Source: a virus (lineage: Duplodnaviria; Caudoviricetes). From it: a stretch of 64,000 bases of DNA. This document shows positions 6,734 to 54,277 of the stretch, piece by piece. Under the pieces are notes generated by a model, which was not told the DNA's origin, ran no database searches, and was given only the letters and a program-made list of their open reading frames with translations. A program made the translations under genes and the position numbers. How positions within the stretch are numbered: position 1 is the stretch's first letter; every line of letters begins with the position of its first letter. The stretch covers positions 128,001 through 192,000 of IMG/VR virus record IMGVR_UViG_3300014590_000001, one strand, 5' to 3'.

Positions 6734-6792
6734 ATTCTAATACAAAAGTATTAGATAAGCCATCGACATTTTGGACACAGATTTGCAGAGTT
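6734..6792 (-). promoter_or_regulatory. phage promoter P1 (conserved box, TGGCTT-17-TAGAAT), upstream of gyrB
   Basis: AACTCTGCAAATCTGTGTCCAAAAT then 28 nt then TAGAAT. Confidence 0.8.
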
Positions 6793-6829
6793 GGTCAAAT
6801 TTTAACCAGTGCAGCTTAGTTGACTATAA

Positions 6830-7171
6830 TCAGTCTTGAATCACCGTAGCGTCAATCAGAGTGCGGTAGCTGGCCTCGTCTACCTCGTTAACGTCGATAG
6901 GGAACGCAGCAGGATTATCAGAGTCACACCACGCCTGAATATCAGAAACGAATTCACCGTACTTGATCATTTCAACGCCATCCATTTCAGACAGCAGTTT
7001 GATTTCGTGAGCGTTGCGAGAATCAATTACGCTCGTGCGAATTGAACGAATGGTATGATCGAAAAAGCAGATTGCGAACTTAGTATTTGAAATTCTAATA
7101 GCGCGAAAAATTTCTTTGCTGAGTTGCGTTGCTTCTTCTTCGTGTTTCTTAAAACGTTCGTGAAGATTCAT
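6830..7171 (-). CDS. hypothetical protein
   Basis: 113 aa ORF in co-directional gene run. Confidence 0.7.
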   Translation of the reverse strand: MNLHERFKKHEEEATQLSKEIFRAIRISNTKFAICFFDHTIRSIRTSVIDSRNAHEIKLLSEMDGVEMIKYGEFVSDIQAWCDSDNPAAFPIDVNEVDEASYRTLIDATVIQD

Positions 7172-7205
7172 TTAGGAACCTGAGTGAGAATTTGGACTAG
7201 AAACG

Positions 7206-7240
7206 AAAAACGGGCTAGAGATATTAATCCCTAACCCGTA
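7206..7240 (-). terminator. intrinsic terminator after H1-like gene
   Basis: ACGGGTTAGGGA-loop-TCTCTAGCCCGT followed by T-tract. Confidence 0.7.
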
Positions 7241-7277
7241 AAAGTTAATCAGCGTTTGGGAACTTCGAAACTAGTTC

Positions 7278-7808
7278 TTAGTTGTCCAGTTCGAATTCAA
7301 AGTCGCCTTTGCCTTTTTTCTTGGACTTTTTATCGCCCTTCACTTTCTTGTCAGCTTTCGCTGGCTTGTCAGCTTTTGCTTTCTTACCAGCTTTCGCAGG
7401 TTTTTCTTCAGCGGCTTTCTTGCCAGCTTTTTTGTCAGCCTTAGCTGGCTTTTCAGCTTTCTCTGCTTTGGCTTTCTTACCAGCCTTAGCAGGTTTTTCT
7501 TCAGCAGCTTTCGCTTTCTTACCAGCTTTCGCAGGTTTTTCTTCAGCAGCTTTTTTGCCTTTAGCCGGAGCAGCTTTGTCAGCCTTAGCAGCTTTTGCTT
7601 TCGGTTCAGCTTTTGCTTTAGCGGCTTTAGCCGGAGCAGCTTCGCCGTTGTTTTGCAGAGCTTCTACCTGAGCGGCCAGAGAAGCGCGACGTTCAGCCAG
7701 CTTAGACTGTTCACCGGAGATCTGTTCAGCAGTTTTGCCGAGATTCTTTTCAGATTTTTCAATCGCGCGGATTTCTTTGTTCAGAGCGGAGATAACTTTC
7801 TTAGACAT
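7278..7808 (-). CDS. histone H1-like Lys/Ala/Pro-rich protein with N-terminal coiled coil
   Basis: repeated KKAAEEKPAKAGKKAKA; GAGG RBS before ATG 7808. Confidence 0.8.
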   Translation of the reverse strand: MSKKVISALNKEIRAIEKSEKNLGKTAEQISGEQSKLAERRASLAAQVEALQNNGEAAPAKAAKAKAEPKAKAAKADKAAPAKGKKAAEEKPAKAGKKAKAAEEKPAKAGKKAKAEKAEKPAKADKKAGKKAAEEKPAKAGKKAKADKPAKADKKVKGDKKSKKKGKGDFEFELDN

Positions 7809-7984
7809 AATAACCTCTATCAAAATAAATGTTCGTTGTGGAAAAACAGAAATCGTTTCTGCGTAGAAGTACATTAGCATGTTCAATGTACTTCTCGCAA
7901 TTTTTCTTCAAAGATTTTCGAAGAATTTTTTGGCCTGAGCTTAGTCCTAAAACCTATCAGGCCGCGCCACCGTCAGATGATTAC

Positions 7985-8812
7985 TTATTCGTCGTCTTCG
8001 TCTTCGTCTTCATCGTCGAAGTCTTCGTCTTCGTCATCTTCGTCTTCTTCGTCGTCACCAGCGAAGTGCGCTTCCAGAGCTTCGCGCAGTTCGTCTTCGT
8101 CTTTCTTTTTAGCCTGAGCTTTGGTGAACACGCCTTCTTCGATTGCTAAAGCGCGAAGTTCTTTTTCGTCGAGGTCGTCGAGATCTTGTTCATCTTCGTC
8201 CTCGTCGTCTTCATCTTCGTCTTCATCATCTTCATCGTCGCCGTCTTCGTCGTCTTCGTCGTCCGAGTCTTCATCATCCTCGTCTTCGTCGTCTTCGTCT
8301 TCGTCGTCACCATCTTCGTCGTCTTCGTCTTCGTCATCCTCTTCATCATCGGAATCGTCGTCAGAATCGTCGTCAGAATCGTCGTCGCCGTCTTCATCTT
8401 CGTCGTCTTCGTCTTCTTCATCTTCGTCATCAGAAGAGACACCCATCGCTTCGTTCAGCAGTTCGCGAAGTTCGTCTTCGTCCATGCTGCCAGCTTTTTT
8501 CTTGGTAGCAGCTTTAGACTTCACTGCGGCTTCACGCAGAGTTTCTTCGTCTGCGTCAGAAATATCGATCGCTTCTTCTTCTTCAATCGCTTCCACGATT
8601 TGAGCAGCGGTCACTTTCGCTTTTTTCTTACCAGCTTTAGCTTTCGGTTCAGCCTTAGCAGCTTTACCGCCTTTACCTTTAGCGGCAACAGTCAGACCAG
8701 CTTCAGCCAGCAGTTCGGCAACTTCGGAATCAGCAGATGCTTCAACCAGAATGCCAGCCATCTTAGCCAGAACTTCCATCGCTACGTTAGAGGTCTTTTT
8801 AGCTTTTGCCAT
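7985..8812 (-). CDS. highly acidic protein with two helix-loop-helix (HeH-like) repeats
   Basis: long D/E tract; repeats DADEETLREAA...MDEDELRELL and DLDEKELRALA...DEDELREAL; AAGGA RBS. Confidence 0.8.
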   Translation of the reverse strand: MAKAKKTSNVAMEVLAKMAGILVEASADSEVAELLAEAGLTVAAKGKGGKAAKAEPKAKAGKKKAKVTAAQIVEAIEEEEAIDISDADEETLREAAVKSKAATKKKAGSMDEDELRELLNEAMGVSSDDEDEEDEDDEDEDGDDDSDDDSDDDSDDEEDDEDEDDEDGDDEDEDDEDEDDEDSDDEDDEDGDDEDDEDEDEDDEDEDEQDLDDLDEKELRALAIEEGVFTKAQAKKKDEDELREALEAHFAGDDEEDEDDEDEDFDDEDEDEDDE

Positions 8813-9608: not shown

Positions 9609-9627
9609 TTCGAAACTCCAGTTTCAC

Positions 9628-15100: not shown

Positions 15101-15477
15101 GATTTGTCGTCCGGCATGGAATATGATTTCCAGATCTGGTTCACTAGTTCCAACCAATCGGCTTCAGAAATATCAGTTCCATAAAGTTCTTTATAGGCCG
15201 ACCAGAAACCGGGGCCGGGAATTTTGTCACCATACTTGCGCGAGATATAAAGCGCCGCTACTGGAGGGCGTCCAGCAGCAGCATCAATCTTCATTGTCTC
15301 ATACAGAACATTCCAGATTAAATCTGCTTGTTCCTGTTTTAAGCGCGTGAATTGCATCCCGTAAATCGCGGGAGAGAGATCGTTGAAAAACAAGTGGATG
15401 TTTTGTGTGGCAGCCAGAACTAATCTGCTATAGACCTGGCCGACAACCGCACGAACAAGAACATTTGTGTTTTCCAT
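15097..15477 (-). CDS. hypothetical protein
   Basis: 126 aa, translationally coupled; GRPPVAALYISR...PGPGFW motif. Confidence 0.7.
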   Translation of the reverse strand: MENTNVLVRAVVGQVYSRLVLAATQNIHLFFNDLSPAIYGMQFTRLKQEQADLIWNVLYETMKIDAAAGRPPVAALYISRKYGDKIPGPGFWSAYKELYGTDISEADWLELVNQIWKSYSMPDDKS

Positions 15478-16424
15478 TATTCACCGCCAGAAACTTTCTG
15501 CGCCTTACGGTTTTTGTGAACCAGTTCGAATTCACCGTTACCAAAGAAGCGATCAACAACAAGCGGAATAATCTCTTCCGGAATTGTCGGAGACAGCGCA
15601 GCGATAACCGCCTTGATCTGCGTTTTGTTCAGAACGATTTTGCCACTCTCCACAAATTTCTTCATGTGGCGCGGCATACTTTGTTCAGCAGCGAGCGAAT
15701 TATAATGCGCTTTGAGTGCATTAATCGCTTTGCGTACTTTCGGCACACCGTATTTTTCAACGATAGCGCTTGCAGTGTCCGGCAGATCTTTCACAGTGAC
15801 GTTCAGACTATTAGAAAGAATTTGGTTGAATTCTTTCCATGTGCGCGGATTGGTGATTGCGGCTTGCATCGCGCCAAACAATTGTTCGGCAGTTTCAAAC
15901 TGGCGATCAACCGGAGTTGATTTAGGCATTGTCACACGTTTCGGAACAGGTTTAATCTTTTTCTGTTCGTCAGTTTTCGGCTTGACGTTGCCATTTGCTT
16001 TCGCAGTTTTAACTTTCGTAGGTTTGGCTTTATCGCCGTTCACCTTCACAGGCTTATCAGATTTGATTTTGCCAGTTTTAACAGAGCGCGGTTTGATCAC
16101 TTTTGCCGGAGCGGTTGAGCGTTTCCATTCAGTGAAAGCCGGAGGCGTTTCAACCACTTCGCCTTTCTTAATCCGGCGCATCACATCGCGAGAATGAATG
16201 TGAATGTAACCATCCATTTTAACGATACGTTCAGGCGCAATATCTTTCAGAGCATCACGCGGCAATTCAACCAGAACTTTACCGCGACGAACCAGCGTAG
16301 CTGGATCAACAGTGCGAGAACTTCCATCAATGCTGTAACCTTTTGCGTTAACGCCGATAATACGAGAAGTTTTATCGTCAGCAGTGCGCAGAACAACGTT
16401 AACCAGATTTGCATTAGTAGTCAT
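15477..16424 (-). CDS. basic protein, N-terminal domain paralogous to 16497..18128
   Basis: 315 aa, Lys/Pro-rich linker; AAGG RBS. Confidence 0.8.
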   Translation of the reverse strand: MTTNANLVNVVLRTADDKTSRIIGVNAKGYSIDGSSRTVDPATLVRRGKVLVELPRDALKDIAPERIVKMDGYIHIHSRDVMRRIKKGEVVETPPAFTEWKRSTAPAKVIKPRSVKTGKIKSDKPVKVNGDKAKPTKVKTAKANGNVKPKTDEQKKIKPVPKRVTMPKSTPVDRQFETAEQLFGAMQAAITNPRTWKEFNQILSNSLNVTVKDLPDTASAIVEKYGVPKVRKAINALKAHYNSLAAEQSMPRHMKKFVESGKIVLNKTQIKAVIAALSPTIPEEIIPLVVDRFFGNGEFELVHKNRKAQKVSGGE

Positions 16425-16496
16425 GACAAAATACCTTTTATAAAATTGGGAGAGTTTGGAGCGCGGCGTAATTACCGCGCCAATCGAATTTATTTA

Positions 16497-18128
16497 TTAG
16501 CCTTTAGCCAGCAGAGCGCGGAGTTTTTTCTCGCTCATGTTTTCGGCGGCGCGAACTTTCGCAAGACCTTTCTGAACTACGATATCGCGCAGTTCGTCTT
16601 CGTCCAGATCTTCGTAATCGTCGTCTTCGCCTTCTTCAAAATCTTCGTCTTCTTCGTTGCTGTCTTCGCCGTCTTCGTCAGAAACAACTGGTGAGTATTC
16701 TGACAGGCCGGAAATATCTTCGTTGCTAAACGCTACAACTTCTTTACCGCCTTCTTCAATCACCAGCAGATCCGCGTCTTCATCCATGCCGACATAAATC
16801 AGAGTGTCTTCGCCGTCTGTCAGTTTCAGACCAGCAACCAGCGCAGATTCAGGAACGCCCCACAGTTCGGACAGCATGGACAGGTTTTCTTCTGTCACTT
16901 CTGAATCACGTCCGGCTAACTGCTTTTTAGTCAGCGAAACATATTCGTATTCTTCGCCGTCTTCGTCTTCACCGTCTTCAGAATCGTCATCGGAATCTTC
17001 GCCGTCTTCTGAATCGTCTTCATCCTCTTCGTCCTCTTCGGACTCTTCTTCTTCCTCTTCCTCTTCTTCCTCGTCTTCATCTTCATCTTCATCTTCAGCA
17101 ACCAATTCATAGTGGCTCAAAGATCCGGTGGAGATAGTGCGGAATTTTTCGGTTTCGGTGTTGAACAGTACAGCTTTGTTGTTATCGTCAACGCTTGCGC
17201 CGCAGAAAACAAACTGACCATCTTCACCTTCGCGAACCAGCAGAGTGCCAGCAGTCATATCGCTCGCATCAACGCCGAGGTGTTCAGAGATTGCAGCCGC
17301 CAGTTTTTTACCGACAGTTTTACCAACACGCGATTTGATTTTCTTCGCCAGTTCCGGAGAAATTTCATAACCGCCGTTGATTTCTTCAGGCTCAGGCTGC
17401 GCCAGTGCGTATTTGAAATTCATCGTTACGCGAATGTCGCCACCAGTGCGATCAAACTCAGTCGAGTAACCAACTTCGAATGCGTTTTGAATCGCCGCGT
17501 TGTTTTCGTCAAACTTCGCGAGAGAAGAATCTTTCGCGACTGCCATCAGACGTTCAGTAATAACTTTCGCCAACGGTTCGCCAACTTCAGACAGTGACAC
17601 GGTGCCTTTCGGTTTGATACCAAAGTCGCTCATTTCAACGCCAGCGTTTTTAGCGCCACGACGTTTAACAGTGCGACCAGTTGTTTCTTCTACATCAACA
17701 TCCGCAGCTTTGCGGCGAACTTTAGAAGGTTTCTCTTCAACGTCTTCAACGTCTTCAGCAGGTTTGCGACCGGAAGTTTTGCGGCCAGTAGTTTTAGCTG
17801 GCTTGTCTTCAGCAGGTTTGCGACCGGAAGTTTTCTTGCCAGTTGCTTTAGCAGGTTTTTCTAAGAAAGCGTCAGTGCCAACTTTTTTCTGCATCGCTTT
17901 GTCGGAAAATTCAACGTAGCCGTTTCCGGTGTCGTTCAGTTCACGCAGAGACACGTTAGGGATTTCGTAAAACATCGCGCCCTTTTTCGCAACCTGCTTG
18001 CTGTTCACACGAACAGAGCGGTCTGCAACTTTGTAGCCAGTAGCTACAGCAGCGGTGATTTTAGTTTTGGTGCCGTCCAGCAGAACAATTGATTTACCGA
18101 TCAGAGCTTTGTTAGTTGCGATTGCCAT
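16497..18128 (-). CDS. acidic/basic modular protein with internal duplication and C-terminal HeH-like motif
   Basis: 543 aa; AGGAG RBS; KTSGRKPAED repeats; D/E tracts. Confidence 0.85.
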   Translation of the reverse strand: MAIATNKALIGKSIVLLDGTKTKITAAVATGYKVADRSVRVNSKQVAKKGAMFYEIPNVSLRELNDTGNGYVEFSDKAMQKKVGTDAFLEKPAKATGKKTSGRKPAEDKPAKTTGRKTSGRKPAEDVEDVEEKPSKVRRKAADVDVEETTGRTVKRRGAKNAGVEMSDFGIKPKGTVSLSEVGEPLAKVITERLMAVAKDSSLAKFDENNAAIQNAFEVGYSTEFDRTGGDIRVTMNFKYALAQPEPEEINGGYEISPELAKKIKSRVGKTVGKKLAAAISEHLGVDASDMTAGTLLVREGEDGQFVFCGASVDDNNKAVLFNTETEKFRTISTGSLSHYELVAEDEDEDEDEEEEEEEEEESEEDEEDEDDSEDGEDSDDDSEDGEDEDGEEYEYVSLTKKQLAGRDSEVTEENLSMLSELWGVPESALVAGLKLTDGEDTLIYVGMDEDADLLVIEEGGKEVVAFSNEDISGLSEYSPVVSDEDGEDSNEEDEDFEEGEDDDYEDLDEDELRDIVVQKGLAKVRAAENMSEKKLRALLAKG

Positions 18129-18193
18129 GATTATTTCTCCTAAGAAATAGTAGTTGAGGCTTTTAAGTTCGGCACTGCGCCGAGTGAGATTAA

Positions 18194-18252
18194 ATAGTGC
18201 ATGAAACTCTCAGAAGTTTCAATCAACATTTTAGACACTATTTTGCAGAGTT
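18194..18252 (-). promoter_or_regulatory. phage promoter P2 (TTGAAA-17-CACTAT)
   Basis: AACTCTGCAAAATAGTGTCTAAAAT, 28 nt, CACTAT. Confidence 0.8.
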
Positions 18253-18272
18253 CCCAAAGGTGGAGACTTTGC

Positions 18273-18355
18273 AAAAAAGTGTGGGCATCCATTCCCACAT
18301 AAAGGTTCCAAACAAACTACTTGATACTTGAGGGTTCAGAGCGTTGCCGCCCTGT
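18273..18355 (-). ncRNA. candidate small RNA (~83 nt)
   Basis: own promoter P3, 5' GCAA-tetraloop hairpin, 3' terminator GTGGG...CCCAC-AC-T6, no complete ORF inside. Confidence 0.55.
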
Positions 18356-18361
18356 CCTTAT

Positions 18362-18420
18362 ATTCTAGCTGAACGGAGCGGCAAATGCTATCGGTATTTT
18401 GGACACTTATTTGCAGACTT
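18362..18420 (-). promoter_or_regulatory. phage promoter P3 (TAGCAT-17-TAGAAT)
   Basis: AAGTCTGCAAATAAGTGTCCAAAAT, 28 nt, TAGAAT. Confidence 0.8.
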
Positions 18421-18427
18421 TGAAACT

Positions 18428-18976
18428 TCAGCCCTTGCGAGATTTCGCTTCAGGCATCTGCTTTTTAGGTGGAACCGTATATTTCGATTTCTTAGGTTCC
18501 TTGAATTTCTTCATGCCGTGGCGTGTGCCGTGGATTTTGTTAAAACGATACGTTGCATCCGCAATAAAGCAACGCTTCGAGAAACTGTCTTTTTTAGGCA
18601 GAACCGAATCATCGACAATGCCAAGCGCTTTTACTTCAGCGAGCAGATCTTTAAACTCAGGGAAGAAACCGCACTGGTTATTCATGATCTCGTCAGTTTT
18701 GAAAGGATCGATTTCAACATAACGAATCATGTGAAGCATTTCTTTATTCACACCAGTGACCGCCGAAACTTGTTTTTGAACAATGTCAGACGATTTGGAT
18801 AAATCAGCCAGCGCAGCAAATTCTTTTTCGGTCAGGCCGATTGTTTTCAGAATCGCTTTCTTGCTGTCCTTGTCGCTATGTTCGCTCAGGAATAATTCGA
18901 ATGCTTTTGACAAAGCAACAGAGAGCAGAGCGGCTTGTGATTGGGTTGAGGCTTCGGTGAACTTCATTGTAGTCAT
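18428..18976 (-). CDS. hypothetical protein (start may be 18967)
   Basis: 182 aa, first gene after P4. Confidence 0.75.
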   Translation of the reverse strand: MTTMKFTEASTQSQAALLSVALSKAFELFLSEHSDKDSKKAILKTIGLTEKEFAALADLSKSSDIVQKQVSAVTGVNKEMLHMIRYVEIDPFKTDEIMNNQCGFFPEFKDLLAEVKALGIVDDSVLPKKDSFSKRCFIADATYRFNKIHGTRHGMKKFKEPKKSKYTVPPKKQMPEAKSRKG

Positions 18977-19014
18977 CCTTTGTAAGTCTAAGCGGTATTG
19001 CTTAGTGAGTCTTT

Positions 19015-19073
19015 ATAGTATGAAAGTTTCGTGTCCAAAACAACCTGTATTTTGGACACTGTTTTGCAGACTT
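19015..19073 (-). promoter_or_regulatory. phage promoter P4 (TTGTTT-17-TACTAT)
   Basis: AAGTCTGCAAAACAGTGTCCAAAAT, 28 nt, TACTAT. Confidence 0.8.
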
Positions 19074-19076
19074 GCT

Positions 19077-19442
19077 TTATACAAGGCCGTCCAGTTTTCT
19101 GTCTAACTCTGCCTGAATCTTTTTGTGTCGTTCACGCTCGCCCAGCATACGGAAGAAAACGAATGTTCCCCACAGCCAGAATGTGAGCGGCAGAGGCACA
19201 ACGATCAGAATCCAGAAAGGCAGCAAAAGCAGCCACGCGAAAAACTGCGCGATTGTCATGTGCCAGCTTAATTCGCAAATCTTTTCCCACAGCGATTTAA
19301 AGCATTTGCCGATTCCATCCGCGACCAACGCCCAACAATCCAAAAGACTAGGCTTGTACGATCCAGCGCGAACCACGCCGTAGGGATTGTGGAAAAACTG
19401 ATAAATGGTTGCGCTATTTTTTACTTCTTCAATTGTTGGCAT
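19077..19442 (-). CDS. hypothetical membrane protein
   Basis: hydrophobic stretch FFAWLLLLPFWILIVVPLPLTFWLWG. Confidence 0.75.
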   Translation of the reverse strand: MPTIEEVKNSATIYQFFHNPYGVVRAGSYKPSLLDCWALVADGIGKCFKSLWEKICELSWHMTIAQFFAWLLLLPFWILIVVPLPLTFWLWGTFVFFRMLGERERHKKIQAELDRKLDGLV

Positions 19443-19819
19443 CAGAATCTCGCCTCCCCTAAAACAATTGAGCCGTCATCAATTTTCGCTTCTCGAATTT
19501 TATCTCCGCGATCCGGCAGACGAACGATGTAGGTTGCATGTTTCCATCCGCGATGTGAGTTAACAGGCTCAGTTGTGCGGTACATAATAAGAGGATGAAG
19601 ATCGTCAGAATGAAACGAATTGTAATCTGCAACGAATTTTAATTGTGCCTCTTCGCTAAAATTCGTTTCGCCCACAAAAGCCATCGCACGAATCAAATCA
19701 ATTCGAACAACGCCGCCAGCTTTGCTGGGTTTAGTTTTGAGTGCGAACGTCTGATATTTCTTACGACGATCTTGTGGATGCAGATTGTGATTTTCAACCA
19801 GCGAATCAATGTAGCCCAT
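19442..19819 (-). CDS. hypothetical protein
   Basis: GAGG RBS before ATG 19819 (MGYIDS). Confidence 0.7.
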   Translation of the reverse strand: MGYIDSLVENHNLHPQDRRKKYQTFALKTKPSKAGGVVRIDLIRAMAFVGETNFSEEAQLKFVADYNSFHSDDLHPLIMYRTTEPVNSHRGWKHATYIVRLPDRGDKIREAKIDDGSIVLGEARF

Positions 19820-19820
19820 T

Positions 19821-20054
19821 TTATTTTCCTCTTCCGTAGCCGCCGATTGCCTCTTGCACAGCAATATGTTTAAGAATGCGATGATGTAGAGCTTCGCGTG
19901 AACTCCCCTCAAAATCGCTAGGGATAACATTTGCAGCAACCATTATTTCTTTGAGTTGTTGCGTGGATAAATGCGCGAACTCTTCAGCAACATTTTCCAT
20001 AGAAGGATTGTTGCGTAACTTGCTACTGATTTGCATTGCCATGTTGTTTCTCAC
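19821..20054 (-). CDS. small HeH/SAP-like protein
   Basis: FAHLSTQQLKEIMVAANV...GSSREALHHRIL. Confidence 0.65.
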   Translation of the reverse strand: MRNNMAMQISSKLRNNPSMENVAEEFAHLSTQQLKEIMVAANVIPSDFEGSSREALHHRILKHIAVQEAIGGYGRGK

Positions 20055-20416
20055 TCTTCGTCAGGTTCGTCTTCAGGTTCAGCGCCTACCATCATATCAA
20101 GTTCTTCTATGGATAAATCAAGAGAACTTTCAACGCGACGAGCAGAAAGACGTACCCAATTTCTCGTCTGACTGATAAGCAACAATGCGTACTGGCCGCA
20201 GTCAACAGGGAAGATTAAATATCCACGTTGCCGCAAATGGAATTCCAATTCTTGAAGAACACTCGGTTCGATATAGCTGTTTCTATATCCAAACAGTCCA
20301 GCTACAACGTTGCCCGTAATAATGATACGAGTTATCGTTTTGTTCTTTTCTTCTGCATATGATTTCATGTTAAGAACAAGCAGGGCAGCGACAGCTTCAG
20401 CAGTACGGAATTTCAT
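20051..20416 (-). CDS. hypothetical protein
   Basis: 121 aa, GGAG RBS. Confidence 0.75.
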   Translation of the reverse strand: MKFRTAEAVAALLVLNMKSYAEEKNKTITRIIITGNVVAGLFGYRNSYIEPSVLQELEFHLRQRGYLIFPVDCGQYALLLISQTRNWVRLSARRVESSLDLSIEELDMMVGAEPEDEPDEE

Positions 20417-20436
20417 AAAATTTTCTCCAGAAAGTT

Positions 20437-20464
20437 AAAAAGGGCAGCACCGAAGTGCCACCCG
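20437..20464 (-). terminator. intrinsic terminator
   Basis: GGGTGGCAC-TTCG-GTGCTGCCC-TTTT. Confidence 0.8.
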
Positions 20465-20471
20465 AATTTAT

Positions 20472-21248
20472 TTACGCTTGCTCAGATTTGAAAGCATGTA
20501 CAGCAACCATCATCGAGTCGATGTTAGAAAATTCTGCATCGGAAACTTTGATTTTGTTTGCGATTGCGAAATCTTGAAGTTGCTCAAGATTCCAACCCTG
20601 CATTGCTTTCGCAGCCTTGCGAACGTTTTCTGGACGACCATCATATTCATGGTCAATGTCACGATCATCAACTACTGTTTGATCTTCGTCTTCGTCTTCG
20701 TCCTCACCCCCAAAACCATGTTCAATCAGTTTTTCCGTTGCAGGACTAATCTGGTAGTCATCACTACCTCTGGTGCGACCGATACGAGCACGGACAACTT
20801 TCGTTTTCGTATCAGGCAGACGAATGAACAGACAGTCAGGAGAATCCCAATCAACGAACACCCACGAACCGTAAACGTCAGCAATATCCAAACCGGATAA
20901 TGTGTCGTTGATCAGATCATGCAATCGCGATACGCGAGTGTTTTTCAAAGTGCGTGACATAATCAAATTGATTTCACGCATACTAACTTTGATGATGTTT
21001 TGATCGGAGCCTTCGAGATTATTCTCTTTGGCTATCCGCCATTTCTCTAAAACCGAAACAACAAAACTATTCAAACGGTCTGCATCTGTAATGCGCGCAG
21101 AAATCACTGCTTCAGAATTCTTTGCGCGAACAGAAGCGGGAGCGCCTTTTGCTTTAGCGAGTTTCTTTGCACCAGCTTTAGTTGCATCCGCGTTCTTTTT
21201 AGCACGACCAGCTTCGATTTGTTTTGCGATCACTTTAGGATTAGGCAT
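20472..21248 (-). CDS. hypothetical protein, paralog of 22358..23179, C-terminal HeH-like motif
   Basis: AAGGA RBS before ATG 21248 (MPNPKV). Confidence 0.8.
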   Translation of the reverse strand: MPNPKVIAKQIEAGRAKKNADATKAGAKKLAKAKGAPASVRAKNSEAVISARITDADRLNSFVVSVLEKWRIAKENNLEGSDQNIIKVSMREINLIMSRTLKNTRVSRLHDLINDTLSGLDIADVYGSWVFVDWDSPDCLFIRLPDTKTKVVRARIGRTRGSDDYQISPATEKLIEHGFGGEDEDEDEDQTVVDDRDIDHEYDGRPENVRKAAKAMQGWNLEQLQDFAIANKIKVSDAEFSNIDSMMVAVHAFKSEQA

Positions 21249-21340
21249 TTTGTAGTTCCTTTGGGATTTACGTTGAAAGCATGTAAGGTGAAAACCCCGT
21301 AAATCCTTACACGCTTGTTGAGGCAAGTGCCTCGGTCTTT

Positions 21341-21399
21341 ATTGTCTCAAAATAACGAGGCGATAGCCACCGATATTTTGGACACTGTTTTGCAGACTT
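21341..21399 (-). promoter_or_regulatory. phage promoter P5 (TGGCTA-17-GACAAT)
   Basis: AAGTCTGCAAAACAGTGTCCAAAAT, 28 nt, GACAAT. Confidence 0.8.
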
Positions 21400-21434
21400 G
21401 CTAGGTCTTGTTATGCGTCTTCTGAAAGGCACAT

Positions 21435-21503
21435 AAAAAGACGGCTTGATTCATCACCTCCGTCCGTGGAGGCATTCGTTGGGGAAATCCAGAATCAAGC
21501 CGT
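21435..21503 (-). terminator. terminator-like 12-bp stem with 39-nt structured loop
   Basis: ACGGCTTGATTC...GAATCAAGCCGT then CTTTTT. Confidence 0.55.
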
Positions 21504-21543
21504 GAGCAAGTTAGCTCTAATAGTTGCACAACCTTTCTAAAAC

Positions 21544-22335
21544 TTATTCCTCGTCTTCTTCTTCACCTTCTTCGACGAGATCTTCAATGATGTTATCGCC
21601 ATCGAATTCGTCAGTGAAAACTTCTTCTTCATCTTCGAAATCGAAATCTTCTTCGTCGTCTGCATCCAGTTCGAGAGACAATGAAGAGTCAACGCGATCT
21701 TTATTTTCCATGTAGGCGATTGCTTCACGCGCCATTGAAGTGAAACACATATCAGGATTCACTTTCAGTTCGTGCAGCATGAATTTGTCTTGCCACTCTG
21801 CGCGATTCTTTTCAACGATTTCGTCAACGTGATCTTCCAGTTCCTCCCCGCCGCGAATTGGCAGTTCGAGGAATTTCATTACGTGGCGCACTTCGCGAAT
21901 CGGAGACTCGCACAACATTTCATAGAGCGATTGACGTTCAATGCTGTCACGCGCTTCAATCAAAAACGCTTGCAGTTTTTCGCTGTTACGTACTGCAACG
22001 CGCTTGACCGCTTTCTTTGTAGGCACAAGTTTATCGTGCAAAGAAATCAGCGGAACTTCGGCGTATGCGTTTCCGATTTCGAGAATCGTACACATATCGA
22101 CAAAACTTTCTGCGTCCTGCATTGGATCGATTTTCACAACGCTGCGCATCACGACTTGCGAATCCAATTCGCTACCATCAGAGTAGATGATAGAAACAGG
22201 TAAGGCGCTTCCGTAGATCTTCGCAATTGCTTGCGACAGCAGAAGGCCAGGAACGTGCGGGGCAATTAACTTTCCGTTCAGCAGGAAAGAATAAGTGATA
22301 CCACAGAAACCGGTTTTACGTTGAATAGTTAACAT
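21544..22335 (-). CDS. hypothetical protein with acidic tail
   Basis: 263 aa. Confidence 0.75.
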   Translation of the reverse strand: MLTIQRKTGFCGITYSFLLNGKLIAPHVPGLLLSQAIAKIYGSALPVSIIYSDGSELDSQVVMRSVVKIDPMQDAESFVDMCTILEIGNAYAEVPLISLHDKLVPTKKAVKRVAVRNSEKLQAFLIEARDSIERQSLYEMLCESPIREVRHVMKFLELPIRGGEELEDHVDEIVEKNRAEWQDKFMLHELKVNPDMCFTSMAREAIAYMENKDRVDSSLSLELDADDEEDFDFEDEEEVFTDEFDGDNIIEDLVEEGEEEDEE

Positions 22336-22357
22336 AGCAAGATACCTACCTTTAAGT

Positions 22358-23179
22358 TTATTTTGATTGAGCGATCAGGAATTCTAACAGAGCAGCATCT
22401 GGATTGTTTCTAGCTTTAAGCGTTATGCCCATATTGTCAGCAGCATCGCGAACGCTTTCAAAATCCAGCAAATCCAAAAGTTCATTAACTGCTTGTTGCG
22501 TAGTTCCTTCTAGCTCGCCAATATTCAGAGTTGTTGCGAGTTCGTTCAACACTTCAAGATCTTGAGAGAGTAAAACGAACTTCAATTGTTGGTAAGTCCC
22601 CGAAGTTTGTCGCCGTTCTTCAGGAGTAAGGCTATCAACTTCAGCAATACGTTTGCGTGTATTGCGAAGTGAGTCAGGAGCTTTCTGTACATCAGCAGGA
22701 GAAAATTCTTCCTGCAACTTATTTTCAGTTTTAACAGGATTGGCTTTAGGTTTTGCCTCTTTAACTGGTTTCTCTTTCTTCGGCTTTTCTTCCGGTTCAG
22801 CGAAATCAGTTTCACCCAATTCAACCAACTTGCCTGTATAACCATTTTTAGAATAGACAATACCAACTACGCTTGTTGCAGAATGCGGCAATTCAATCAA
22901 AGTAAAATCAGGTGCATCATGTTTCACCAGCGCCCAATCTCCGTGAATAGCGCGGAAATTAAAATCGCCAATAACTTTTTCTACCAGTTGCGGAAGTTTA
23001 CGACGAGGCGTGTTTTCCAAAACTTTGTGAAGATCCGCAACAGAAAACTTAATGTAGTTGTCGTTAAACAACTCGCCCTTTTCGTACAGTCCACGGCGAA
23101 CAGCTTCGTTAGCTTCGAAGATACTTACCAGTGCCGCACGTACACCATCAAAATCACTCTGACTTGTTACAGCAGACAT
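22358..23179 (-). CDS. hypothetical protein, paralog of 20472..21248, HeH-like repeats
   Basis: 273 aa, GAGG RBS. Confidence 0.8.
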   Translation of the reverse strand: MSAVTSQSDFDGVRAALVSIFEANEAVRRGLYEKGELFNDNYIKFSVADLHKVLENTPRRKLPQLVEKVIGDFNFRAIHGDWALVKHDAPDFTLIELPHSATSVVGIVYSKNGYTGKLVELGETDFAEPEEKPKKEKPVKEAKPKANPVKTENKLQEEFSPADVQKAPDSLRNTRKRIAEVDSLTPEERRQTSGTYQQLKFVLLSQDLEVLNELATTLNIGELEGTTQQAVNELLDLLDFESVRDAADNMGITLKARNNPDAALLEFLIAQSK

Positions 23180-23189
23180 TTCATTTACC

Positions 23190-23597
23190 TCAACTTAAAA
23201 TTTGTTGCAGCGACAGCACCGGAATTTCCGGAATGAAGATAAAGATTTTTTGCTCAGGAATATCGGATTTGAGTACCGCATGTTTTTTCATGTACTCAGT
23301 TCCATCCGCTACCATCCAACCGCCGAACCAGTTCGCGAATTCAGGCGAGGCTAACACGCGATTAATGCAGTTGGTTGTTTCCGCTTCATCCCATTGATGA
23401 TCCACCATCGCGCCATCACCGAAAACAATGCGAACATCGTTTGCATTAGCGTAGAAGTCGATCATCGGAACGTGAAACGCGATAGCGCCATTGCGTTGCA
23501 TATGTTGATCGACTTGCGAGAAAACTTCTTCGACTTTGCGAGCAGCCGCATATAACGCCAACTTGCCAGTAAACTTATCCAAGTCTAAAACTTTCAT
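23190..23597 (-). CDS. hypothetical protein
   Basis: 135 aa, coupled to upstream ORF. Confidence 0.7.
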   Translation of the reverse strand: MKVLDLDKFTGKLALYAAARKVEEVFSQVDQHMQRNGAIAFHVPMIDFYANANDVRIVFGDGAMVDHQWDEAETTNCINRVLASPEFANWFGGWMVADGTEYMKKHAVLKSDIPEQKIFIFIPEIPVLSLQQILS

Positions 23598-24372: not shown

Positions 24373-24426
24373 ATAGAACTCCTTTGCAGTCTATATAAAA
24401 GTTTAGGTTAGGTACGGCTTACCCTT

Positions 24427-24485
24427 AGTTTACAGAATAAGCCGTTTTGTTGCCAGCGGTATTTTGGACACTTATTTGTCGAGAT
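24427..24485 (-). promoter_or_regulatory. phage promoter P6 (variant box, TGGCAA-17-TAAACT)
   Basis: ATCTCGACAAATAAGTGTCCAAAAT overlapping upstream stop, 28 nt, TAAACT. Confidence 0.7.
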
Positions 24486-25092: not shown

Positions 25093-25115
25093 GATTATTT
25101 TCCGTATCAGAGAAT

Positions 25116-25517: not shown

Positions 25518-25523
25518 GATCGC

Positions 25524-25730: not shown

Positions 25731-25731
25731 T

Positions 25732-28299: not shown

Positions 28300-28358
28300 A
28301 GTTTACCTAAGCGAAACGGCAAATGCCATCACTATTTTGGACACCAATTTGCAGAGTT
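28300..28358 (-). promoter_or_regulatory. phage promoter P7 (TGGCAT-17-TAAACT)
   Basis: AACTCTGCAAATTGGTGTCCAAAAT, 28 nt, TAAACT. Confidence 0.8.
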
Positions 28359-32277: not shown

Positions 32278-32336
32278 ATTTTACCTAAGTAAAGGCTCAA
32301 TTCCAAGCGGTATTTTGGACACTTATTTGCAGAGTT
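32278..32336 (-). promoter_or_regulatory. phage promoter P8 (TTGGAA-17-TAAAAT)
   Basis: AACTCTGCAAATAAGTGTCCAAAAT, 28 nt, TAAAAT. Confidence 0.85.
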
Positions 32337-38769: not shown

Positions 38770-39027
38770 TTACCTCAGTTGAGAGTCTTTACTGCCCCGA
38801 CGATTATAGTAACTGACTTGAGTTCCATCGTGTTCGGCTTGATGTTTAATGCAATACTTCGCGTTAGGCATAGCTTTCAAACGCGCAGCAGGAATTTCGT
38901 TACCGCATTCTAAACAATGCGTAGAACCTTTACCGGAAAGTTGTGACCGCGCAAAATCAATTCCATTGTTTACGTTTGTTTCAATGGTGTCATTCACGCC
39001 GTCATCTTTTACAAAACCAACTGCCAT
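38770..39027 (-). CDS. ybiI: DksA/TraR-family zinc-finger protein (YbiI-like)
   Basis: CLECGNEIPAARLKAMPNAKYCIKH; C-terminus YNRRGSKDSQLR as in enterobacterial YbiI. Confidence 0.9.
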   Translation of the reverse strand: MAVGFVKDDGVNDTIETNVNNGIDFARSQLSGKGSTHCLECGNEIPAARLKAMPNAKYCIKHQAEHDGTQVSYYNRRGSKDSQLR

Positions 39028-39354: not shown

Positions 39355-40515
39355 TTAGAAGCGACAAGAGGAACCGGAGAAGTGGAAGCGGCAACTTTCG
39401 TCTTCGTCACTCTCCCTTACAACTCGCGCACGTTTTTCGCGTACTGGCTTTTCAGGTTTCTCTGCCGGAGCGTCAACGATATCGAAATCAAACTTTTTCA
39501 GTTTTGGTTTCTTCGCTGCTTTTGCTTTCGCAGGTTTCTCACGTTGAACATTCTTAACGCTAGTAACCGGATCGTTACGTGACCAATCGTAATAAAGTTT
39601 GCCGTCCATATGGAAAACGTATTCGGTGTATTCACCTTCGTCTTCGTTCGGCTCGTAGGAACTTGCTTTCAACCATGCGCGGTTATGATTGATCCAGTTG
39701 CTAGGCAACGAGAAGCAAGACGCACACATATCAGGTTGTGGATCTGCGTCGTCATCTTCTTCAGGACGGTCAACATAGAAATGCGCAAGGAAAAGACTCA
39801 GAAGATTATCTCCATCAGACATAACATCATCTTCTGAACCCAAATCTTCTTCTTCGTACTCTTCGCGAATTTGTTTCGCGATGTGAGGCAGGTTGTAGTC
39901 AACACGAAACACAACGTCGATGTATGGATTCGCTTCCATGAACAAACGCGCTTGCTGCATTTCCCATTCGATGTTGTCAATGTTTTGAGGATTGATAACA
40001 AAGTTGATATGGAAACTTACTTGCTTACCAATCAGGCGACGGAAGCGAACCAGATCGGCGTGAGTGTAAGTGTATTCAGTTCCCATGATATCGTTGTTCA
40101 GATCCGGATCGAACGAGTGCATACTGATATTCAAGTGATGCAACTTGCTTTGCAGATCTTCGGTTGTGTTGCCGTTCAGGAAGCGCAAAATATCTTCCTG
40201 CTTATTCAGGAATCGACCGTTAGAAGTCAGGCCGATGTTTTTGATGTTTGTTGCTTCGCGAATTTCGTCCATTACTTCGAACAGATAATTCATGCGCAGC
40301 GTTGCTTCACCGCCGGATAAAGAAACGTGGTCAAACGTTCCTTCATGTTTGTTGATTTGCTCGATCAGGTTGTTCAGCCATTCACGTTGCCCTGCTTTCT
40401 TTTCCATTTCCTTTTCAGGACAGAACGAGCAGGACGCGTTGCAGGTTACAGGCAGAATCGCGGTGAAGTTGCGCATCATTTTGTTTTTCTTTTTACGGAT
40501 GTTTTTAGTTGTCAT
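39355..40515 (-). CDS. radical SAM protein
   Basis: CNASCSFC (CxxxCxxC), SGGE, TSNG, NISMH. Confidence 0.9.
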   Translation of the reverse strand: MTTKNIRKKKNKMMRNFTAILPVTCNASCSFCPEKEMEKKAGQREWLNNLIEQINKHEGTFDHVSLSGGEATLRMNYLFEVMDEIREATNIKNIGLTSNGRFLNKQEDILRFLNGNTTEDLQSKLHHLNISMHSFDPDLNNDIMGTEYTYTHADLVRFRRLIGKQVSFHINFVINPQNIDNIEWEMQQARLFMEANPYIDVVFRVDYNLPHIAKQIREEYEEEDLGSEDDVMSDGDNLLSLFLAHFYVDRPEEDDDADPQPDMCASCFSLPSNWINHNRAWLKASSYEPNEDEGEYTEYVFHMDGKLYYDWSRNDPVTSVKNVQREKPAKAKAAKKPKLKKFDFDIVDAPAEKPEKPVREKRARVVRESDEDESCRFHFSGSSCRF

Positions 40516-40517: not shown

Positions 40518-41345
40518 TTATGCCTCGTTGCGATTCTGGATAGTGATATTACGGATAAGACGTTTTAACTGTTCTTCGCTCAGGTGCGTAAGTTGCACGT
40601 CACGGAAAGGAAGAAGTTTCGACAGCACATAAACCATTTCGGCTTTAGGAATCGAATCAAGTTCCACGTCGCGACCACATGCGATAGAAACGTTCAGAGA
40701 AGAAACGACAGTGCGATCAATGAATGTGAAATTCAGAGGTTCGCACAGCGGCTGTCTAACTGAATCGAGATACTCAACAAGTTCTTCAGTAAGCATCATA
40801 CGATTCATGCGCGGAAATTCTTCTTTGCGATCCGGAATAACATCAATCAGCAAATCGCGCATAACGCCAACATCAACCATTTCAATATCAATCGCGTCAA
40901 CAGAAATCAAACGCACGATAACATCAGTCGGAAGAGAAATAGTTTTCTTCGGTTGCTTCGGCATATCATCTTTATTTGTGCAAAGATAAAACTTCAACCA
41001 GTTACGCGCATGTTGAACGCCGGAGAAAACTTGTGCTGTAAGTTTGTTGGTTGCGCGTAAAACAGTTTCATCGTCAACACGATCAACCATATCCATTCTT
41101 TCAATGGAATTTTCGTGTGCATCTAAAAGACCAACACGAACAGGTAAAGTTGTGTTCATGATAACGGTGTGTTCAGTTTGTCCGTTATCTGCAATCAGGC
41201 GAGCAAAACCAGTTCCGAAATAAATGATCAGTTCGTCATTGGTCAGGCCGTGTTTTTCGGCTACGGTTCCGACTGCATCCGTCAACTCGTCGAACGCTTC
41301 TTTGAGGAAAGGAGGCAGTTCAGCAGGGATATCTAGCGGTTTCAT
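40518..41345 (-). CDS. hypothetical protein with HeH-like repeats
   Basis: 275 aa, first gene after P9. Confidence 0.75.
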   Translation of the reverse strand: MKPLDIPAELPPFLKEAFDELTDAVGTVAEKHGLTNDELIIYFGTGFARLIADNGQTEHTVIMNTTLPVRVGLLDAHENSIERMDMVDRVDDETVLRATNKLTAQVFSGVQHARNWLKFYLCTNKDDMPKQPKKTISLPTDVIVRLISVDAIDIEMVDVGVMRDLLIDVIPDRKEEFPRMNRMMLTEELVEYLDSVRQPLCEPLNFTFIDRTVVSSLNVSIACGRDVELDSIPKAEMVYVLSKLLPFRDVQLTHLSEEQLKRLIRNITIQNRNEA

Positions 41346-41389
41346 ATGGTGGTTTCCTATGGGTTAAAATGACAAAAGGCTTCCCCTAT

Positions 41390-41448
41390 AGAATACAGGA
41401 AAGCCTTTTGGATAGACAGCGGTATTTTGGACACTTATTTGCAGAGTT
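41390..41448 (-). promoter_or_regulatory. phage promoter P9 (TGTCTA-17-TATTCT)
   Basis: AACTCTGCAAATAAGTGTCCAAAAT overlapping kptA stop, 28 nt, TATTCT. Confidence 0.8.
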
Positions 41449-47491: not shown

Positions 47492-47800
47492 TTATCGAAT
47501 GTGACGAAAGATTAACATCACGCCAGCGTAAACTTCTTCAGGCGCAGGATTATATTCGTTGCGATCCTCTTGCGCTCGAATCTCTTCCATCAACATTAAG
47601 TTGACTAAGTTTCGATGCCAGAGAGGAAGTGCATTCTGGAATTTAATTCCGTACATGCAATCCATCGCTTTCTGACGTTCCCAAATTTCTTCTCTGTTCT
47701 CTTCGACGTAGAAACGATCAGCTACATCGCGAGATCCCAACGTAACGGTGAACGTTGTGTTGTTGGAGAAGTTCATGGTGATTTCAGTAGTTGAGGACAT
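47492..47800 (-). CDS. hypothetical protein
   Basis: 102 aa, AAGGAG RBS, first gene after P10. Confidence 0.75.
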   Translation of the reverse strand: MSSTTEITMNFSNNTTFTVTLGSRDVADRFYVEENREEIWERQKAMDCMYGIKFQNALPLWHRNLVNLMLMEEIRAQEDRNEYNPAPEEVYAGVMLIFRHIR

Positions 47801-47851: not shown

Positions 47852-47910
47852 ATTTTGCCTAAAAAGCCTGAGACTTTCTACCGGTATTTTGGACAGCTAT
47901 TTGCAGACTT
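47852..47910 (-). promoter_or_regulatory. phage promoter P10 (TAGAAA-17-CAAAAT)
   Basis: AAGTCTGCAAATAGCTGTCCAAAAT, 28 nt, CAAAAT. Confidence 0.8.
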
Positions 47911-50230: not shown

Positions 50231-50240
50231 AGGATTTTCC

Positions 50241-50336: not shown

Positions 50337-50337
50337 G

Positions 50338-51256: not shown

Positions 51257-51257
51257 T

Positions 51258-52181: not shown

Positions 52182-52656
52182 CGCTGATCTGACCTTCTTT
52201 CAACGGGCTGTAATACGTGCCGAGGCCAAACGGATCTTTGAAGTAGCAAACAAATCCTAAATCGAGGAGGAAGTTTTGGAAGAAATCTTCCAACGGATTT
52301 TCAACTGACAGAATAACTTTTCGTTCCTGACACTCTGCCATCAATGCGTACAGCAACGCAGTGAATAAATTTTTGCGGCGTAATGATTCAGGTAACTCGA
52401 TATTCGAAATGCAAAGATAGGAGTGACCGAAACGACCGTAACGCATCGCACCATAACGCATATAGCAACTGATTTTGCTGATCGGCTTGATGTATTCCGA
52501 TTCTGATTTGATAAACTTACGTTGCTCGACTTTTGCCAACTTGTCGAAAACTTGATTGACGAATGAATTAATGATCGGTTCAAATTCTTCCAGCGCAGCT
52601 TTAACGCGATTGATACGAGCAGCAGGAACGAGAGCCAGAATTTTATCAGTGTTCAT
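52138..52656 (-). CDS. GNAT-like acetyltransferase
   Basis: ISNIELPESLRRKNLFTALL (motif A-like) and FLLDLGF (motif B-like). Confidence 0.55.
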   Translation of the reverse strand: MNTDKILALVPAARINRVKAALEEFEPIINSFVNQVFDKLAKVEQRKFIKSESEYIKPISKISCYMRYGAMRYGRFGHSYLCISNIELPESLRRKNLFTALLYALMAECQERKVILSVENPLEDFFQNFLLDLGFVCYFKDPFGLGTYYSPLKEGQISDEPFYNIEAYRNAE

Positions 52657-53138
52657 TAGCAGAATCCTTTTTCAAATGTGTGAGCTTTTTCCCAACCAAA
52701 GAACATGCGAACAATTTCAACTTTATCTTCGCATGATTTATCTTTGCGGTTCAACCAAACGCGGAAGCAGTCGCGCAGTTCTTGCGTAGTTCCTTCTTCC
52801 GGTTCACCAATGCCTACCATCACTTCGAAAAGTTCGTCATGCGAGGCTTCGTCAAGCAGACGATCAACCACTTCTTGTCGGCGGCGATCTTTATCTTCTA
52901 AACAATTACGTTCGCCACGCAACACAGCTTGCACGTTGCTGGCAAAACGGCTTGATGCCAACATGCCTTGCTCAACCTCTTCAACAGACATGCAGTAATC
53001 AACACGCAGACGTTTACCTTCATAGTTGAAATAAACGTAGGGGTTGCCGTGACGTTCAACCATATCAATTTTGGTAACGGTGTGAACATCAGGCAGACGC
53101 GAAATGATCGCCTGAACGATTTCATTCATGGAGTACAT
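52656..53138 (-). CDS. hypothetical protein with SAP-like C-terminal motif
   Basis: ASHDELFEVMVGIGEPEEGTTQELRDCF. Confidence 0.7.
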   Translation of the reverse strand: MYSMNEIVQAIISRLPDVHTVTKIDMVERHGNPYVYFNYEGKRLRVDYCMSVEEVEQGMLASSRFASNVQAVLRGERNCLEDKDRRRQEVVDRLLDEASHDELFEVMVGIGEPEEGTTQELRDCFRVWLNRKDKSCEDKVEIVRMFFGWEKAHTFEKGFC

Positions 53139-53190
53139 AATATTTTTCCTTAAACGATTTAAGCGCCCGACCTACGAGCGCACGAATTAG

Positions 53191-53790
53191 TTAGGCAACG
53201 AGTGCAGTGATCGCGTCAACATGTTTCGCATCGCAACAACCTTCAACGAAAACGAAAGGACGCAAACCAAGCTGATTGTTTGACTTCATCATGAAGTAAT
53301 AAACAGCGTCGTCAACATACAGCGTTACGACAGGCTTAGTTAGTGAGAAGTGGAACGCAAAGTTAGTGCCTACCAGTTCCTGAATTTTGTACCAGACCGG
53401 AGCCAGCTTATTAATCACCGACTCAATGAGCATTTTGTTAATGAGTTTTTCGTCGCTCAGATCGGCAATGCAGGAATCCGACAGATTAGGTTCCTCGTCA
53501 TCAAACGTATTCATCAGGCCGTGAAGTTCTTTCGACAGCGGAGTGATAACGCGTTTAGGAAACATTTCATCTTCTGATTCTTGCAGCGCACAAGTGCGTC
53601 CATAAGAATCGACTGCAATAACTTCGTTGCCGTCACGGAACCAGAATTCAGTTTCGTCAATGCGCGGAACCCATTTGAGATCTTGCAGCGCTGTTACGTT
53701 CGGATGATTTTTGAAAATGCGCGTAACGATGGAACACGCAAATGGAACAGACAGAACACGCGGATCAACATTATCGGCTTTCTTGCTCAT
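53191..53790 (-). CDS. hypothetical protein
   Basis: 199 aa, AAGGA RBS. Confidence 0.7.
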   Translation of the reverse strand: MSKKADNVDPRVLSVPFACSIVTRIFKNHPNVTALQDLKWVPRIDETEFWFRDGNEVIAVDSYGRTCALQESEDEMFPKRVITPLSKELHGLMNTFDDEEPNLSDSCIADLSDEKLINKMLIESVINKLAPVWYKIQELVGTNFAFHFSLTKPVVTLYVDDAVYYFMMKSNNQLGLRPFVFVEGCCDAKHVDAITALVA

Positions 53791-53847
53791 GGTTTTTCCT
53801 TAGTAAAGTTTGGTTAAAGTTTTTGGTTGCAGGTGAAAAGTTTTTAG

Positions 53848-54168
53848 TTAGCTGCGATTGAATTGATTGCGATCCATCATTTCCATATAGAAGTGATAAT
53901 CGGTTTTGGAATAGTGCTTCGACAGAAAATCTTCGACCGCATTCCATTCACCGCGCAAAAGGAATTTTGTTTCTTCGCCACATTGAACAGTGATTGAAAC
54001 TGTCACGTCGCTTTGTTCCAAATCTTCGGCGCGAATATGATTCAGATCTTCGCGCTTCATAACAACATAGTTTGGGAGAGTTGTTGCGACCTGCCCGACG
54101 TGAATAGTGAGCGGTTCAACGGTTTTCAGGGAGTCGATCATGGATGCGATACGTGGAATAACGAGCAT
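53848..54168 (-). CDS. hypothetical protein
   Basis: 106 aa, first gene after P11. Confidence 0.7.
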   Translation of the reverse strand: MLVIPRIASMIDSLKTVEPLTIHVGQVATTLPNYVVMKREDLNHIRAEDLEQSDVTVSITVQCGEETKFLLRGEWNAVEDFLSKHYSKTDYHFYMEMMDRNQFNRS

Positions 54169-54218
54169 GGCGGTTTCCTTTATATAGGTGCAAATGGGCA
54201 GTGCGCCCGTGAGCCTCT

Positions 54219-54277
54219 ATAGTATCAAGGATTTAAGCCAAATTCGAGGGGTATTTTGGACAGAGATTTGCAGAGTT
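54219..54277 (-). promoter_or_regulatory. phage promoter P11 (TCGAAT-17-TACTAT)
   Basis: AACTCTGCAAATCTCTGTCCAAAAT, 28 nt, TACTAT. Confidence 0.8.

Follow-up and report, generated by a model that had tools for sequence, protein, structure and literature searches.

Which factor turns on a 48-kb block of mostly small phage genes is the question raised by a 25-bp box that recurs along that block in a jumbo phage of the Caudoviricetes. The window analyzed here is a stretch of 64,000 nucleotides, bases 128,001 to 192,000 of the 256,657-bp IMG/VR virus record IMGVR_UViG_3300014590_000001 (a 257-kb jumbo phage), and positions are those of the window unless the genome is named. An earlier note on this DNA had described the box as part of an eleven-copy promoter. 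From sequence comparison, we lean towards a phage promoter class of sigma70 geometry in which the box, at −65 to −41, would be read base-specifically by a probably phage-encoded factor.

The box has the form AAsTCTGCAAA-N4-TGTCCAAAAT, which matches 11 times in the window, always on the minus strand, with box ends at 6768, 18228, 18396, 19049, 21375, 24461, 28334, 32312, 41424, 47886, and 54253 (nine perfect copies, one with one mismatch, and one with three). Shuffled controls (n = 100) gave no match to this form. The consensus had first been written with a gap of five nucleotides (N5), which gives no match with up to three mismatches allowed; with N4, it stands as a 25-bp box. When all 256,657 bp of the genome were scanned with a position-weight matrix, the same set came back, with the 11 copies scoring 42 to 52 bits and the next best site 14 bits. 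All 11 lie within 134.7 to 182.3 kb of the genome, a span of 48 kb in which the genes of the box-bearing block are all on the minus strand, and all are oriented with these genes. Furthermore, every box is intergenic or shares bases with the stop codon of the open reading frame (ORF) upstream of it; for the copies at 24461 and 41424, the TAA stop lies inside the box. The feature is real and nonrandom, and the number, orientation, and placement at gaps reported earlier hold for the genome as a whole.

Downstream of each box come 5 nt, a TnGnnn hexamer, 17 nt, and a second hexamer of the form (T/C/G)AnnnT, with A in position 2 and T in position 6. These −10-like hexamers had been placed at an invariant 28 nt past the box, and the list agrees copy for copy (TAGAAT, TACTAT, and TAAACT twice each; TAAAAT, TATTCT, CACTAT, GACAAT, and CAAAAT once each). 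The −35 element, formerly called poorly conserved, is better kept than that, with T-35 present in 11/11 copies and G-33 in 10/11. A generic promoter scanner does not call the box sites, and intergenic DNA contains only seven weak matches to the canonical sigma70 promoter, box promoter 8 itself among them.

Among public genomes, the closest are those of the Dickeya phages JA11, JA13, JA29, and JA33, which align with part of a 4-kb probe at ~76 to 79% DNA identity. These phages are members of the PaBG/Lu11/Yoloswag/Alexandra/AD1 group of jumbo myoviruses. We observe 9 to 10 box copies in JA11, 10 in JA29, and 11 in two overlapping metagenomic contigs, all gene oriented and in the same order within the corresponding 48-kb block. 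Across the resulting set of 41 copies from four genomes (the window phage, JA11, JA29, and the metagenomic genome), the spacing between box and core is invariant (41/41), as are A-11, T-7, and T-35 of the core (41/41 each), with G-33 kept in 37/41. Within the box, C-61, C-58, A-57 to A-55, T-50, G-49, C-47, and A-44 to A-42 are all invariant (41/41). Orthologous promoters are 88 to 90% identical in the box and 78 to 82% in the −10 element, compared to 33 to 67% over the upstream flank, spacer, and downstream sequence, or 33 to 56% when the flanks and spacer are taken; box and −10 have thus been kept while their flanks drift, which indicates selection on both.

Farther out, AD1, Yoloswag, and fHe-Yen9-02 keep the first half, AAsTCTGCAAA, together with a second half of the form (T/C)GG(A/T/C)(C/T)AAAAT, at the same 53 nt from box start to hexamer, and their hexamer is mostly TATAAT, TACAAT, or TATACT. 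PaBG has no copy of the box, and Lu11 has noise-level matches only. Among IMG/VR records, JA-like genomes alone combine the exact pattern with the complete layout; exact-pattern matches in viral contigs outside this clade were rejected, as they fall in coding segments of unrelated viruses and come without the −35/−10 layout. A literature search found no paper describing the box motif, and the set of promoters is a first regulatory map for the 48-kb block (~85 uncharacterized genes) in this clade of jumbo phages of plant pathogens and Yersinia; some phages of the clade serve as biocontrol agents.

The comparison strongly supports the part of the earlier interpretation that saw a sigma70-geometry class with a functional element at −65 to −41. 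In the mechanism that we propose, a core made of TnGnWW at −35, a 17-bp spacer, and TAnnnT at −10, with the start predicted ~7 nt further on, would depend on an obligatory 25-bp upstream element at about −65 to −41. Host RNA polymerase with sigma70 would most likely read the −35/−10 skeleton, while a protein bound to the box would recruit or stabilize the polymerase from upstream in the style of a class I activator, with the alpha C-terminal domains possibly seated on the two A-tracts. The 11 promoters would then transcribe the 48-kb block, whose ~85 mostly small genes plus topoisomerase II have an early or delayed-early look, and the class is probably early. The box is centered at about −53 and is more conserved than the weak core, as for a class I activator site. 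The A-tracts do fall at UP-subsite positions, as had been proposed, and the sequence-specific readout suggested alongside them gains from C-61, C-58, G-49, and C-47, since G/C positions invariant in 41/41 copies argue for base-specific contacts. The distribution of the box further suggests a phage-encoded or phage-delivered reader more than a host protein: the JA phages (TGTCC) and AD1 (TGGAC or TGGTC) have different second halves in the same host strain, Dickeya solani MK10, and no host genome carries more than one box, which together favor a reader brought by the phage.

Several points weigh against this reading. T-34, a base that sigma70 −35 elements usually keep, is variable here (G19, T10, A7, and C5 over the 41 copies). 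The starts are predicted ones, and the public RNA runs that contain this DNA consist of contigs, which give no starts, ends, or strand. In fHe-Yen9-02, the second halves are a mixture of GGCT, GTCT, GTCC, and GGTC, so the reader may tolerate variation, and this weakens the argument from coevolution. In addition, the box class is seen in phages of enterobacterial hosts only, as would also be expected with a host-specific reader; a phage-encoded reader would itself need a way of first being expressed; and family searches gave no DNA-binding candidate conserved across all box-bearing phages.

The binders named in the earlier note did not survive the comparison. The protein at 38770 is a DksA/TraR zinc finger, from a family that binds the RNA polymerase channel and not DNA. 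The one at 46482 has no family match and no homologue in JA11, which bears the box, or in AD1, Yoloswag, Yen9, or Lu11. The third, at 57356, is patchily conserved and has no family match, with Atlas leads to ribbon-helix-helix proteins at rank 19 and below; its single-sequence fold shows two helices (pLDDT 61), and its homologues are weak or absent (none in AD1). The small conserved proteins that we tested had no DNA-binding family match. A 315-amino-acid (aa) protein at 15477-16424 was rejected as a binder, its Omega_Repress match falling in a Lys-rich low-complexity stretch.

With respect to cellular genomes, a scan with the exact pattern over one genome per prokaryote species gave 52 single matches, mostly chance, and none in Dickeya, Erwinia, or Yersinia. 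Five of the 52, in Leclercia and Silvania chromosomes, are a complete 25-bp box identical to window copies 32312 and 41424, followed by 5 nt, TTGTTT, 17 nt, (T/G)(A/C)ATTA, a conserved 5′ stem-loop, a ribosome-binding site, and a 134-aa pentapeptide-repeat gene. The divergent neighbor in this islet encodes a 238-aa protein with an Atlas lead to CHAT/DUF6642 clusters and no Pfam match; neither islet protein has a homologue in the phage, and there is no regulator gene beside the islet. Two further Enterobacteriaceae genomes carry the same gene pair at 50 to 60% protein identity. In both, TTGTTT and box nucleotides 1 to 14 are unchanged, and the second halves are TGGAC (the AD1 type) and TGGAT. 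Because the first box half is invariant while the islet proteins diverge, the box is judged to be under selection in host chromosomes. It occurs as one copy per genome in seven enterobacterial genomes; among 401 sampled genomes of the order, the one match besides the Leclercia copy has a single mismatch and is chance-like.

We favor an islet wired to the phage reader over one wired to a host factor. A more tentative possibility is that an early activator, encoded or delivered by the phage, reads the box and that the islet of CHAT-like protease and pentapeptide-repeat genes in Leclercia, Silvania, and the two related lineages is an infection sensor by promoter mimicry, switched on when this jumbo-phage clade infects. 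The second half of the host box tracks the variants of the phage lineages. In this scheme, the pentapeptide protein, which has a DNA-mimic fold, could act against the phage topoisomerase II or against the reader of the box. If the islet copy responds to infection, the bacterium would be borrowing the promoter code of a lytic phage to time its response.

The converse, that the box is the site of an Enterobacterales transcription factor co-opted by the phages, with the Leclercia-type copy as its native target, we consider rather unlikely. A complete box with TTGTTT under selection in seven host chromosomes would be expected of such a site, as would the restriction of the box class to phages of enterobacterial hosts and its absence from the Pseudomonas phages PaBG and Lu11. 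However, a host regulator would be left with a single box per host genome, a nearly empty sample of 401 genomes, no match in Dickeya, Erwinia, or Yersinia, and an islet without an adjoining regulator gene, and JA and AD1 phages share a strain but differ in the second half. What we take to be the consensus sites of IHF, Fis, CRP, marbox, Pho box, and CpxR do not fit the box in spacing.

A reading that does without any additional protein, and that we judge unlikely, is that the box is an unusually conserved UP element used by host polymerase alone, with the alpha C-terminal domains on the A-tracts at −57 to −55 and −45 to −42. Estrem et al. reportedly placed the UP consensus at −59 to −38 in 1998, and T4 early promoters carry upstream A-tracts. 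In our own comparison of the column counts with this consensus, 9 to 10 of the 15 specified positions of nnAAAWWTWTTTTnnAAAAnnn (−59 to −38) match, and the −35/−10 skeleton is sigma70-like. With the UP element of the rrnB P1 type (−59 to −38), the box has in common its general position and a pair of A-tracts that line up with the distal and proximal subsites; unlike it, the box has conserved TCTGC and GTGTCC bases and lineage-specific variants. The invariant G/C positions are unexpected if alpha reads A/T through the minor groove, as are second halves that differ by lineage in phages of one host strain and host-chromosome G/C positions that stay fixed while the flanking proteins fall to 50 to 60% identity. 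A similar division holds for T4 early promoters (read with Alt-modified alpha), which share the many near-identical copies before clusters of small genes, the sigma70 geometry, the A-tracts near −42 and −55, and conservation to about −55/−65, whereas the box has invariant G/C positions, is better kept than the −35 and −10, and is followed by a −35 that keeps T and G only. In general terms, the box promoters are of a familiar kind; what is unusual is how long, base-specific, and phylogenetically stable their upstream element is.

Closer in logic to the activator that we propose are the late promoters dependent on P2 Ogr or P4 delta and the Mor- and C-dependent promoters of Mu, which have a poor −35 and a conserved activator site at about −55 to −45. 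In these systems, the activator site recruits host polymerase, and satellites and other elements copy the site for a phage-driven switch-on. In contrast to the P2 and P4 sites, the box is asymmetric and has no TGT-N12-ACA dyad, and the search of the genome for the Ogr_Delta family (PF04606) gave no match, with Mor not searched for. T4 middle promoters (MotA/AsiA) likewise combine a sigma70 −10 with a phage-specific upstream box that defines a temporal class. There, the MotA box at −30 replaces the −35, whereas here the box lies at −65 to −41 and TnG stays at −35; searches of the genome for MotA and AsiA (PF09114 and PF09010) found no match to either family.

The rest of the genome follows a different code. 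A second motif, CTGTAAATA, of the form (A/T)CTGTAAA(T/G)A, has 22 gene-oriented copies genome-wide (in the window, on the minus strand, e.g., at 2903, 2948, 8880, 10444, 14853, and 62654), shows no conserved −35, and precedes the sigma gene and the replication and structural operons. A single base separates the motif from what we take to be the T4 late consensus, and it resembles the T4 late type (TATAAATA, read by gp55) in being −10-only and genome-wide. The box class, unlike these, has a −35/−10 pair downstream, with the −10 located 28 nt past the box, and an invariant C-58 in place of T; the box first half, TCTGCAAAT, and TCTGTAAATA of the second class differ by one base, exactly at this position. 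The regulon proposed earlier, of gyrBA and most accessory operons, is fair for the 48-kb block and not beyond it, where CTGTAAATA is used. The genome splits into at least two promoter classes, and the 25-bp box could serve as bait for the protein that turns the block on.

The sigma factor gene lies at 193,927 to 194,973 (minus strand) of the genome and encodes 348 aa (phrog_17569, E = 7e-139). It was found through PHROGs only, as Sigma70_r2 and Sigma70_r4 Pfam searches of the genome gave no match; its alignment to SigA region 2 is weak, with the Y..WW motif kept. The second motif stands ~30 nt upstream of this gene and likewise ~30 nt upstream of the annotated sigma gene in AD1 and Yen9. AD1, Yoloswag, and Yen9 likewise carry many copies of the motif, PaBG has none, and Lu11, a phage without the box, has 31 (against 1 in the control). 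The second motif is therefore the more natural partner of the phage sigma, and the box class needs another reader. For the PaBG/Lu11 group, the PaBG paper lists only sigma-factor genes under RNA polymerases (PMC7412058). A neighboring 412-aa protein was rejected as a sigma factor, having no sigma match in Pfam, PHROGs, or PDB sequences. Also near the sigma gene, a 149-aa protein (genome 195268-195717, minus strand) matches the Acb1 (anti-CBASS)/2H phosphoesterase families (Pfam E = 3e-14) and, by this match, is likely encoded by a counter-defense gene.

These data make it improbable that the box promoters are a middle class read by host core polymerase with a phage sigma (the 348-aa phrog_17569 protein or its 412-aa neighbor), with the box bound by an extra domain or a partner. 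A sigma is indeed encoded, and one that keeps Y..WW, on a weak SigA alignment, could read the TAnnnT −10. Nevertheless, the sigma family and CTGTAAATA are shared with the box-less Lu11 (PMC7412058), the −10 elements of the relatives include a perfect TATAAT, the host sigma70 consensus, the region from −65 to −41 is beyond the reach of sigma factors, and the 412-aa protein has no sigma family match. It is highly improbable that the box is the operator of a phage repressor that shuts off early transcription instead of activating it. In favor are possible ribbon-helix-helix-like small proteins encoded in the vicinity (weak leads) and the likeness of the box to a pair of direct repeats recurring every ~10 to 12 bp. 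Against it, the box lies wholly upstream of the −35 without overlapping the −35, −10, or +1, and a phage repressor site would be of no use to a host gene. Moreover, the most perfect boxes accompany weak −35/−10 elements, and the looser boxes of AD1 and Yen9 accompany better −10 elements, which fits compensation.

Most copies have a stable stem-loop starting a few nucleotides past the predicted +1, several with GCAA or GCAnT loops, and these are kept among orthologues. Between the tandem promoters at 18396 and 18228, we observe a candidate small RNA of ~75 to 83 nt, made up of a 5′ stem with a GCAA loop, a variable middle, and a terminator hairpin (18299-18280) with a T6 run, this intrinsic terminator lying ~80 nt past the promoter at 18396. 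The unit is conserved with compensatory changes in the same four genomes, and together the 5′ stem-loops and this terminator-bounded unit lend indirect support to a start just after the hexamer. Rfam and transfer RNA scans of the window gave no match. RNA contigs stop near 18232-18248 and have loose ends at 18386 and 18420; these were rejected as transcript ends, as they reflect diverged relatives. Two promoters have their −10 hexamers in the loops of hairpins of 10 to 14 bp (41380-41425 and 24415-24460, minus strand; z = −6 to −7), in which orthologues preserve the pairing through G-T pairs and compensatory changes, with a T-run after the one at 41424. These hairpins may be terminators of the upstream operon that overlap the next promoter. 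A hairpin at the −10 was not retained as a feature of the class, being strong at 41424 and 24461 only and weaker at 28334 and 18396.

Table 1. Putative box promoters, the candidate small RNA, and an example of the host islet
Feature	Position (strand)	−35 / −10	Genes or context
Putative box promoter 1	6734..6792 (−), box 6768-6792	TGGCTT / TAGAAT	Genes for both topoisomerase II subunits (large and small), about 6663 to 2942
Putative box promoter 2	18194..18252 (−)	TTGAAA / CACTAT	543-aa gene 16497-18128 and operon below
Putative box promoter 3	18362..18420 (−)	TAGCAT / TAGAAT	Short noncoding unit
Putative box promoter 4	19015..19073 (−)	TTGTTT / TACTAT	182-aa gene 18428-18976
Putative box promoter 5	21341..21399 (−)	TGGCTA / GACAAT	20472-21326 and following genes
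Putative box promoter 6	24427..24485 (−)	TGGCAA / TAAACT	First box half diverged; −10 in loop of conserved hairpin
Putative box promoter 7	28300..28358 (−)	TGGCAT / TAAACT	27962-28255 and following genes, including phosphohydrolase
Putative box promoter 8	32278..32336 (−)	TTGGAA / TAAAAT	Small ORFs down to dUTPase and transglycosylase genes
Putative box promoter 9	41390..41448 (−)	TGTCTA / TATTCT	40518-41345, radical-SAM gene, DksA-like gene, UvsE-like endonuclease
Putative box promoter 10	47852..47910 (−)	TAGAAA / CAAAAT	47492-47800 and following genes
Putative box promoter 11	54219..54277 (−)	TCGAAT / TACTAT	First in transcription order; 53848-54168 and following genes
Candidate small RNA, ~75 to 83 nt	18273..18355 (−)		Between tandem box promoters 18396 and 18228
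Host islet example, Leclercia adecarboxylata LR590464.1	5592-6901 of extracted piece		Box between CHAT/DUF6642-like and pentapeptide-repeat genes

The individual promoters are listed in Table 1. The gene behind promoter 1 has a JA11 orthologue annotated as DNA topoisomerase II large subunit, and the 5′ untranslated region of promoter 2, which contains a stem-loop, is identical across the four genomes. The JA phages are without promoter 4 and also without its 182-aa gene. The first half of box 6 has diverged because the upstream ORF ends inside the box, and at promoter 9, the −10 lies within a 12- to 14-bp hairpin followed by a T-run. The operon of promoter 9 includes a radical-SAM protein (39355-40515, minus strand) and the DksA/TraR zinc-finger protein (38770-39027, minus strand). 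A DNA methyltransferase gene (54331-55674, minus strand) stands directly upstream of the first box in transcription order, and a DUF6939 protein is encoded at 56779-57417 (minus strand).

Near-identical or 90 to 95% similar DNA to window positions 16001-26000 was found in seed, wastewater, food-production, insect, plant, and banknote metagenomes, and, judging by these matches, relatives of the window phage are environmentally widespread. Finally, positions 7985-8812 and the orthologous regions of the relatives contain long acidic Asp/Glu-rich repeats (GAAGACGAAG-type DNA repeats) in a conserved protein, and in this region, the alignments of contigs to the window have repeat-related joints.

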